From IMG/VR virus record IMGVR_UViG_2698536484_000013, positions 1 to 17,868 of that record: a stretch of 17,868 bases of DNA. One strand, 5' to 3'. The stretch comes from a virus (Duplodnaviria > Heunggongvirae > Uroviricota > Caudoviricetes). The notes beneath the pieces are model-generated. The model ran no database searches. It saw only the letters and a program-made list of their open reading frames with translations, and was not told where the DNA came from. Positions 1,066-1,141 of the stretch are shown piece by piece; position 1 is the first letter of the stretch; each line of letters opens with the position of its first letter. The translations under genes and the position numbers were made by a program.

Positions 1066-1141
1066 GGCCCTTTAGCTCAGTGGTTAGAGCTGGCGACTCA
1101 TAATCGCACGGTCACCGGTTCAAGTCCGGTAGGGGCTACCA
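1066..1141 (+). tRNA. tRNA with CAU anticodon (elongator Met or Ile2/lysidine type), 76 nt with encoded CCA
   Basis: GGCCCTTTAGCTCAGTGGTTAGAGCTGGCGACTCATAATCGCACGGTCACCGGTTCAAGTCCGGTAGGGGCTACCA folds as a cloverleaf: D stem GCTC/GAGC, anticodon loop CTCATAA, T arm ACCGG-TTCAAGT-CCGGT, 3' CCA. Closely resembles the enterobacterial ileX-type tRNA as recalled, with compensatory T-stem changes. Confidence 0.85.

Follow-up and report, generated by a model that had tools for sequence, protein, structure and literature searches.

The window, by which we mean the whole 17,868-bp stretch of DNA that was analysed, belongs to a P1-family (Punavirus) phage-plasmid. Its positions 112-3500 showed 98-99.9% identity to P1-family phages and to ~100-kb P1-like E. 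coli plasmid prophages, and plasmid pMB5646_3 runs collinear with the segment 112-15343, the identity being 99.1%. Homology to P1 proper starts at position 1057, 9 nt 5′ of a tRNA gene, and over the 2.4 kb downstream of this gene the identity to P1 is 99.7%. The nearest P1-like plasmid ceases to be collinear at 15343. Beyond that point there are just patchy matches of 88-97%, because of which 15344-17868 was taken as a probable variable accessory region. The features around the tRNA gene are the following.

1-111, + strand: the terminal 111 bp of IS5, followed by the CTAA target at 112-115; matches to P1-like plasmids begin at 112.
211-1038, + strand: gene of an SPFH-domain protein, immediately upstream of the tRNA with a 27-nt gap, replacing tciA-tciB-tciC of P1.
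1066-1141, + strand: tRNA-Ile2 gene of 76 nt with encoded CCA, corresponding to P1 trnI; found by ARAGORN and Rfam, folding as a cloverleaf and matching trnI of P1 (NC_005856) and P7 at 75/76 positions.
1071, + strand: U6, in wobble with G67; a common U/C polymorphism of which either allele pairs (T in 102 and C in 22 of the related loci).
1092-1108, + strand: anticodon arm, with the family-wide mismatch G27 (1092)·A43 (1108); the other four pairs are Watson-Crick, including C29:G41.
1097-1103, + strand: 7-nt anticodon loop CTCATAA, the same as in host ileX.
1099-1101, + strand: anticodon CAT, from tRNA position 34 on; C34 is the expected lysidine site.
1114-1130, + strand: T arm, which departs from ileX by two compensatory double changes (49:65, G-C to A-U; 51:63, U-A to C-G).
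1137, + strand: private C72→T, which turns G1-C72 into G1·U72; C in all 124 P1-type copies compared.
1142-1427, + strand: trnI-ban spacer, non-coding and hypervariable (64/280 sites polymorphic over 1142-1421).
1428-2792, + strand: ban, 1365 nt, encoding a DnaB-like replicative helicase (annotated dnaB/ban), the downstream gene of the operon.

Only one tRNA was reported by ARAGORN for all 17,868 bp: it occupies 1066-1141 of the + strand, and its anticodon is CAT. The Rfam RF00005 covariance model matched 1066-1138 with 62.3 bits (E=1.1e-11), the gathering score of this model being 29, and marked one non-canonical pair, 27:43. A position-by-position check showed the wobbles G1·U72 and U6·G67 in the acceptor stem, the mismatch G27·A43 at the top of the anticodon stem, and the T-stem pairs 49:65 = A-U and 51:63 = C-G, where ileX has G-C and U-A. 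All of the conserved tertiary nucleotides were present (U8, A14, G15:C48, G18, G19, A21, U33, G46, G53:C61, T54, U55, C56 and A58). With its cloverleaf, these nucleotides and a score above the gathering score, the sequence is a member of the bacterial tRNAs of RF00005. The original prediction had described a CAU-anticodon tRNA at this site with exactly these wobbles, this mismatch and compensatory T-stem changes; ARAGORN and Rfam bore out the gene, each of the pairs was seen in our check, and the structural observation is confirmed as correct and well above chance.

ARAGORN labelled the gene as tRNA-Met because of the CAT anticodon only, and many GenBank phage records also call trnI tRNA-Met, so that its correct annotation is at stake. 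Comparison with the two host genes favoured the Ile2 type, as the identity was 67/76 to E. coli ileX vs 54/77 to the elongator metT. The window tRNA is nearer in sequence to tRNA-Ile(CAT) than to tRNA-Met(CAT), which is the distinction applied in PMC1635315. The dominant TilS identity elements in E. coli are C4:G69 and C5:G68 (PMC12514573, PMC11947777, PMC1635315), and the original prediction had pointed to such elements as a check; both are kept in the window tRNA, the corresponding pairs of metT being U4:A69 and A5:U68. The E. coli IleRS set consists of A73, C4:G69, U12:A23, C29:G41, the A37/A38 context and D-loop nucleotides (PMC9976931). Here A73, C4:G69, U12:A23, C29:G41 and the D-loop nucleotides are all there, the D arm is that of ileX, and A37 and A38 stand in a CUCAUAA loop as in tRNA-Ile2.

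Previous studies have indicated that E. coli TilS takes foreign tRNA-Ile2 sharing its elements (PMC12514573), that 6:67 and 7:66 were dispensable in the single TilS tested for them, that substitutions in the anticodon stem can impair the E. coli enzyme (both PMC11947777), and that 1:72 is not a determinant for TilS or IleRS (PMC12514573, PMC9976931). Elongator tRNA-Met was rejected as an identity, the metT-type acceptor stem (U4:A69, A5:U68, G7:C66) and anticodon stem being absent from the window tRNA. The hallmarks of initiator tRNA are a C1xA72 mismatch, A11:U24 and three consecutive G:C pairs at 29-31:39-41 (PMC1635315). The window tRNA has G1·U72, C11:G24 and C29:G41/G30:C40/A31:U39 instead, so it is not an initiator tRNA-fMet; a reading of G1·U72 as an initiator or formylation feature was ruled out in the same way, since A11:U24 and the three G:C pairs of the anticodon stem are missing. 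RefSeq/PGAP labels the C72 form of this gene as tRNA-Ile on hundreds of plasmids. The evidence says that this is a putative tRNA-Ile2 (AUA) and not a tRNA-Met, with lysidine predicted at C34.

The curated P1 record (NC_005856) contains trnI as 'tRNA-ile2 (CAT) gene', 89% identical (0 gaps) to E. coli ileX, and places it between tciC and ban, the DnaB analog. P7 has the same gene. The window tRNA is nearly identical to the P1/P7 copy and, in a Punavirus genome, immediately precedes ban on the same strand, which makes it a member of the P1-family trnI. It can be taken as the already known and annotated gene and not as a new one, because the GenBank annotation text says so. A literature search on P1 tRNA function and on ileZ/argN/argO returned nothing relevant. 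The proposal that this is a diverged, element-borne relative of ileX and not the chromosomal gene itself agrees with the 67/76 identity and with the P1-family context.

An alignment in tRNA numbering of the window with P1, P7 and three P1-like plasmids or phages contained one difference, C72→T at 1137. This splits the odd pairs that the original prediction had treated as one package of divergence. U6·G67, U26, G27·A43, C44 and the T-stem swaps are the canonical P1/P7 sequence, while G1·U72 is a private SNP of the window. Among 124 P1-type copies from the related loci that we fetched, 92 were canonical, 22 had C6, which restores C6-G67, and a few differed at the hinge position 26. The mismatch G27·A43 was nearly invariant among them. 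The 27:43 pair is G·U in host ileX, A·C in ileZ of Stx phages and G-C in another chromosomal copy. As it is already non-Watson-Crick in ileX and A·C in the phage ileZ, the mismatch is no sign of decay; G27·A43 is probably a tolerated soft spot and not damage.

Two further P1-type copies were observed in IMG/VR. One (locus L099) has C34→T and hence the anticodon TAT (UAU), with which AUA could be readable without TilS; it is a single record, in which a sequencing error is possible. The other (locus L127) begins with seven bases, GATGGTG, that are unable to pair with the 3′ acceptor strand, and is probably recombinant or broken. In a relative, trnA (Asn) starts with the same heptamer, and because it is shared, recombination between trnA and trnI is suggested as the possible source of the L127 copy.

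The base T72 was absent from 124/124 P1-type copies in the fetched related loci. No exact T72 match was found among 5,426 complete genomes of E. coli or among 72,556 plasmids, where the best 141-nt matches have one mismatch, and the number of exact T72 matches in IMG/VR and metagenome contigs was 0. The sole GTDB-representative match to the window tRNA carries C72. No phage record was >=99% identical to the window tRNA. A lone >=99% record from the other searches was discarded as a partial match, since full-length rows top out at 98.7%. In the 10.2 kb in which at least 10 relatives could be compared, the window has 8 private alleles, 1137 among them (4 C>T, 1 G>A, 2 A>T, 1 G>T). Four C→T changes relative to the nearest relative in 112-3500 had raised the idea of a deamination burst or mutagenesis, which was rejected as the 8-allele spectrum is ordinary. 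With 8 private SNPs, the probability that one or more falls in 76 nt is 0.058, that is, drift gives one SNP in such a stretch ~6% of the time. The change costs 2.4 bits in the covariance model (64.7→62.3) and 2.7 kcal/mol in the MFE (-30.3 to -27.6). G1·U72 stems from a C→T point mutation private to the isolate, unless the base was miscalled; it is compatible with drift, and is most likely neutral to mildly destabilising and not adaptive. This SNP, confined to the isolate and of doubtful importance, is the sole new item here.

MFE folding of the window tRNA, T72 included, still gives the cloverleaf. Its Rfam score of 62.3 compares with 62.0-62.1 for host glnU/V/W/X, 57.6 for leuW and 54.8 for the phage argN. 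Together with the PGAP label of the C72 form, this speaks against a pseudogene, the outcome that the original prediction had named as refuting it. Within the family, polymorphic sites numbered 2/76 in the tRNA vs 64/280 in the trnI-ban spacer and 6/27 in the upstream gap, the related loci having been gathered with a search bait that lies within the tRNA and so overstates the conservation of its last 25 nt. With those 25 nt excluded, the tRNA had 2/51 polymorphic sites vs 64/280 in the spacer (Fisher p=9e-4). Both tRNA polymorphisms are structure-neutral, one being U/C6 opposite G67 and the other lying at the hinge position 26. This indicates that the P1-family trnI is under purifying selection, and this population-level evidence is what the present analysis adds. 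The score in the range of host tRNAs, the purifying selection and the compensatory T-stem changes argue for trnI as a maintained and presumably working tRNA.

These results also bear on the idea, contained in the original prediction, that a CAU tRNA on a mobile element may be an identity decoy. Such a tRNA would escape TilS, keep C34 and be charged by MetRS, and would then titrate MetRS or TilS or read AUG. Unmodified tRNA-Ile2 is a substrate of MetRS (PMC9976931), and one may speculate that G27·A43 and the acceptor-stem wobbles reduce the efficiency of TilS. However, C4:G69 and C5:G68 are kept, the metT-type pairs are absent, and what purifying selection preserves is exactly the Ile2 identity set. 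Moreover, a Met-charged CAU tRNA would merely read AUG as Met, with no obvious benefit. Our results give this role no support, and we regard it as hardly likely at all.

According to its annotation, trnI of P1 is part of a long ban operon together with trnA (Asn) and trnT (Thr), whose promoters are overlapped by a bivalent C1 operator. The same C1 operator is kept 2.84 kb upstream of trnI in an uninterrupted relative of the SPFH type, with none nearer to the tRNA. No C1 operator was found in positions 1-1500 of the window, the operator site falling outside the window with IS5 intervening. A consensus scan of the same 1,500 positions found no sigma-70 promoter, and no dedicated terminator was found beside trnI by consensus scan; the sole terminator-like match on the + strand, 1128-1140, is the 3′ end of the tRNA itself.

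The IS5 end at the start of the window is present in 2,322 plasmid records, and the match sits just 3′ of the IS5 transposase CDS. At the insertion site, CTAA occurs just once in the uninterrupted relative. A short way upstream of the SPFH gene, the insertion breaks a small ORF whose hydrophobic translation suggests a membrane protein. IS5 lies ~950 bp upstream of trnI, between the C1-controlled Pban region and SPFH-trnI-ban, with its transposase gene oriented toward the latter. It parts the tRNA from its normal promoter region, so that the expression of trnI in the window's isolate is uncertain. Speculatively, read-through from IS5 may make the expression of trnI and ban independent of the repressor ('bac'-like).

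It may be asked from this whether the window's copy is decaying, with T72 weakening the terminal acceptor pair and IS5 cutting the promoter off, which would result in poor expression or maturation. The uniqueness of T72 and its costs in score and folding energy, which come atop the U6·G67 wobble, are in line with this, as are the position of IS5 and the lack of a consensus promoter in 1-1500. On the other hand, a G·U still pairs, the score remains within the range of working host tRNAs, 1:72 is outside the TilS and IleRS determinants, the orientation of the transposase gene makes read-through possible, and drift alone produces such a SNP at the rate given above. We therefore consider decay quite improbable. 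Neither G1·U72 nor the IS5 upstream goes beyond a detail at the level of the isolate; they could matter just in strain typing or in how the window's plasmid expresses ban and trnI.

At least four unrelated upstream modules (tciA-C, SPFH and two others) adjoin the same tRNA in P1-like elements, and therefore the tRNA marks a mosaic junction (flank at 1039-1065 of the window). On its other side, the spacer at 1142-1421 varies more within the family than any other segment of the region (23% of sites polymorphic, with many indels at ~1198-1282), unlike the tRNA and ban that flank it. Another tRNA, in degenerate form, or a structured RNA in this 280-nt spacer, suggested by a 'GCCCCTAGCTCAGG' motif, was rejected because there was no Rfam match at E<=5, the fold had z = +0.21 and the variability was the highest. 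Separately, we observed in pMB5646_3 (locus L007), at 4960-5800, downstream of trnT and upstream of the point where the window starts, three imperfect 'ACAGGTAAGGG...CCGTTGTGATGAATGC' repeats that are unannotated in RefSeq. One of them holds a T-loop-like GGTTCGAATCC. These repeats might be tRNA-derived or structured RNA elements.

Codon usage was compared with one ORF-calling procedure for all sequences, the host side being a single 50-kb K-12 core region. Per 1000 codons, ATA occurred 11.9 times in the window, 11.5 times in a whole 96-kb relative and 2.9 times in the K-12 region, and its share of the Ile codons was 20%, 19% and 5%, respectively. Measured against the K-12 sample, the odds ratio is ~4, with p = 5e-12 in the window and p = 4e-24 in the relative. 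Within the window, several genes for tail and baseplate proteins attain 19-32 ATA per 1000. For ACA, which the co-resident trnT reads, the enrichment over the K-12 sample was 2.8-fold. In the window and pMB5646_3, AGG (4-6x), AGA (1.5-2.6x) and CTA (1.4x) were also enriched, without a matching tRNA on the element; AAT was enriched too vs the K-12 sample, but AAC, the codon of trnA, was not. As a general rule, phage tRNAs decode codons that the phage overuses and the host rarely uses (PMC4032129), and the ATA and ACA figures agree with it. Codon compensation is at best a partial rationale, because AGA, AGG and CUA are enriched without a phage tRNA and AAC is not enriched. For trnI itself, the supply of AUA decoding, which the original prediction had named as one possible role, is the best-supported function because of the AUA enrichment, the intact identity elements and the purifying selection.

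Our explanation is that this P1-family trnI, a diverged copy of an enterobacterial ileX, is very probably functional, belonging to the C1-repressed ban operon and decoding AUA in dependence on lysidine. Judging from P1 and the uninterrupted relative, it would be transcribed within the long ban operon from the C1-repressed Pban, ~2.3-2.8 kb upstream. Host RNase P and 3′-end nucleases would then cut it out of the polycistronic RNA. Host TilS, reading C4:G69 and C5:G68 in E. coli, is expected to turn C34 into lysidine, after which IleRS would charge the lysidinylated tRNA and AUA could be decoded. During lytic growth, trnI may in this way supplement the scarce host tRNA-Ile2 for the AUA-rich phage genes, whose usage of AUA is ~4 times that of the host core, and the phage would presumably benefit.

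A different use of the gene would be the evasion of host defence, or replenishment, in which trnI replaces host tRNA-Ile2 lost to anticodon nucleases, toxins or shut-off and the differences in its stems give resistance. The differences from ileX do lie in stems and hinges and are conserved across the family. A complete E. coli genome has a median of 2 ileX-like CAU tRNA genes and a maximum of 14, which are mostly on prophages, and plasmids carry such genes at 639 places; this isoacceptor is very often mobile-element borne, and unusually often mobilised. However, the 7-nt anticodon loop and the D arm are those of the host, so a loop-directed nuclease would cut both tRNAs, and the codon skew already accounts for the retention of trnI. 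To our knowledge, no nuclease is specific for tRNA-Ile2. This makes defence evasion quite unlikely. There is likewise only a slim chance that the departures from ileX (U6·G67, U26, G27·A43 and the T stem) or the unique G1·U72 tune the partition between TilS/IleRS and MetRS, or shield the tRNA from a host nuclease or quality control. If these departures were non-neutral, P1 would have a translation resource acting unlike the host isoacceptor.

With AUA decoding as the preferred reading, trnI can be set beside known systems. The closest is trnI of P1 and P7 (tRNA3; NC_005856 70933-71008; AF503408), which shares 75/76 nt with the window tRNA and is alike in U6·G67, G27·A43 and the T stem. It is also directly upstream of ban, followed by the same spacer, ban and dbn. 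It differs in having C72, and tciA-C upstream where the window has the SPFH gene, with IS5 further upstream.

E. coli ileX/ileY, chromosomal genes of the tRNA-Ile2 that reads AUA by means of lysidine, share with the window tRNA the anticodon loop, the D arm, the acceptor pairs 2-5 and 7, A73 and CCA, as well as all TilS and IleRS elements. The window tRNA differs from ileX by 9 substitutions (U6, U26, A43, C44, two compensatory T-stem pairs and U72), with a fold of -27.6 vs -36.5 kcal/mol and a covariance score of 62.3 vs 73.1. It is borne by a plasmid prophage and embedded in an operon, whereas ileX is stand-alone and chromosomal.

Among phage genes, ileZ of the Stx-converting lambdoid phages (ileZ-argN-argO upstream of stx) is also an ileX-like CAU tRNA with C4:G69 and C5:G68, with A·C at 27:43, and, like trnI of the window, it is presumed to decode a rare codon. 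Its identity to the window tRNA is 64/76; in contrast to the latter it has a T stem of the host type and belongs to another phage family, where it lies in the late region next to stx. CAU tRNAs of T4-type phages, annotated as Ile or Met, are present in many large myoviruses and have ~78-80% identity to the window tRNA. The tRNA-Ile of T4 is an AUA reader with a modified C34. The T4-type genes, however, lie in big tRNA clusters of virulent phages, and not in a repressor-controlled operon of a plasmid prophage as trnI does.
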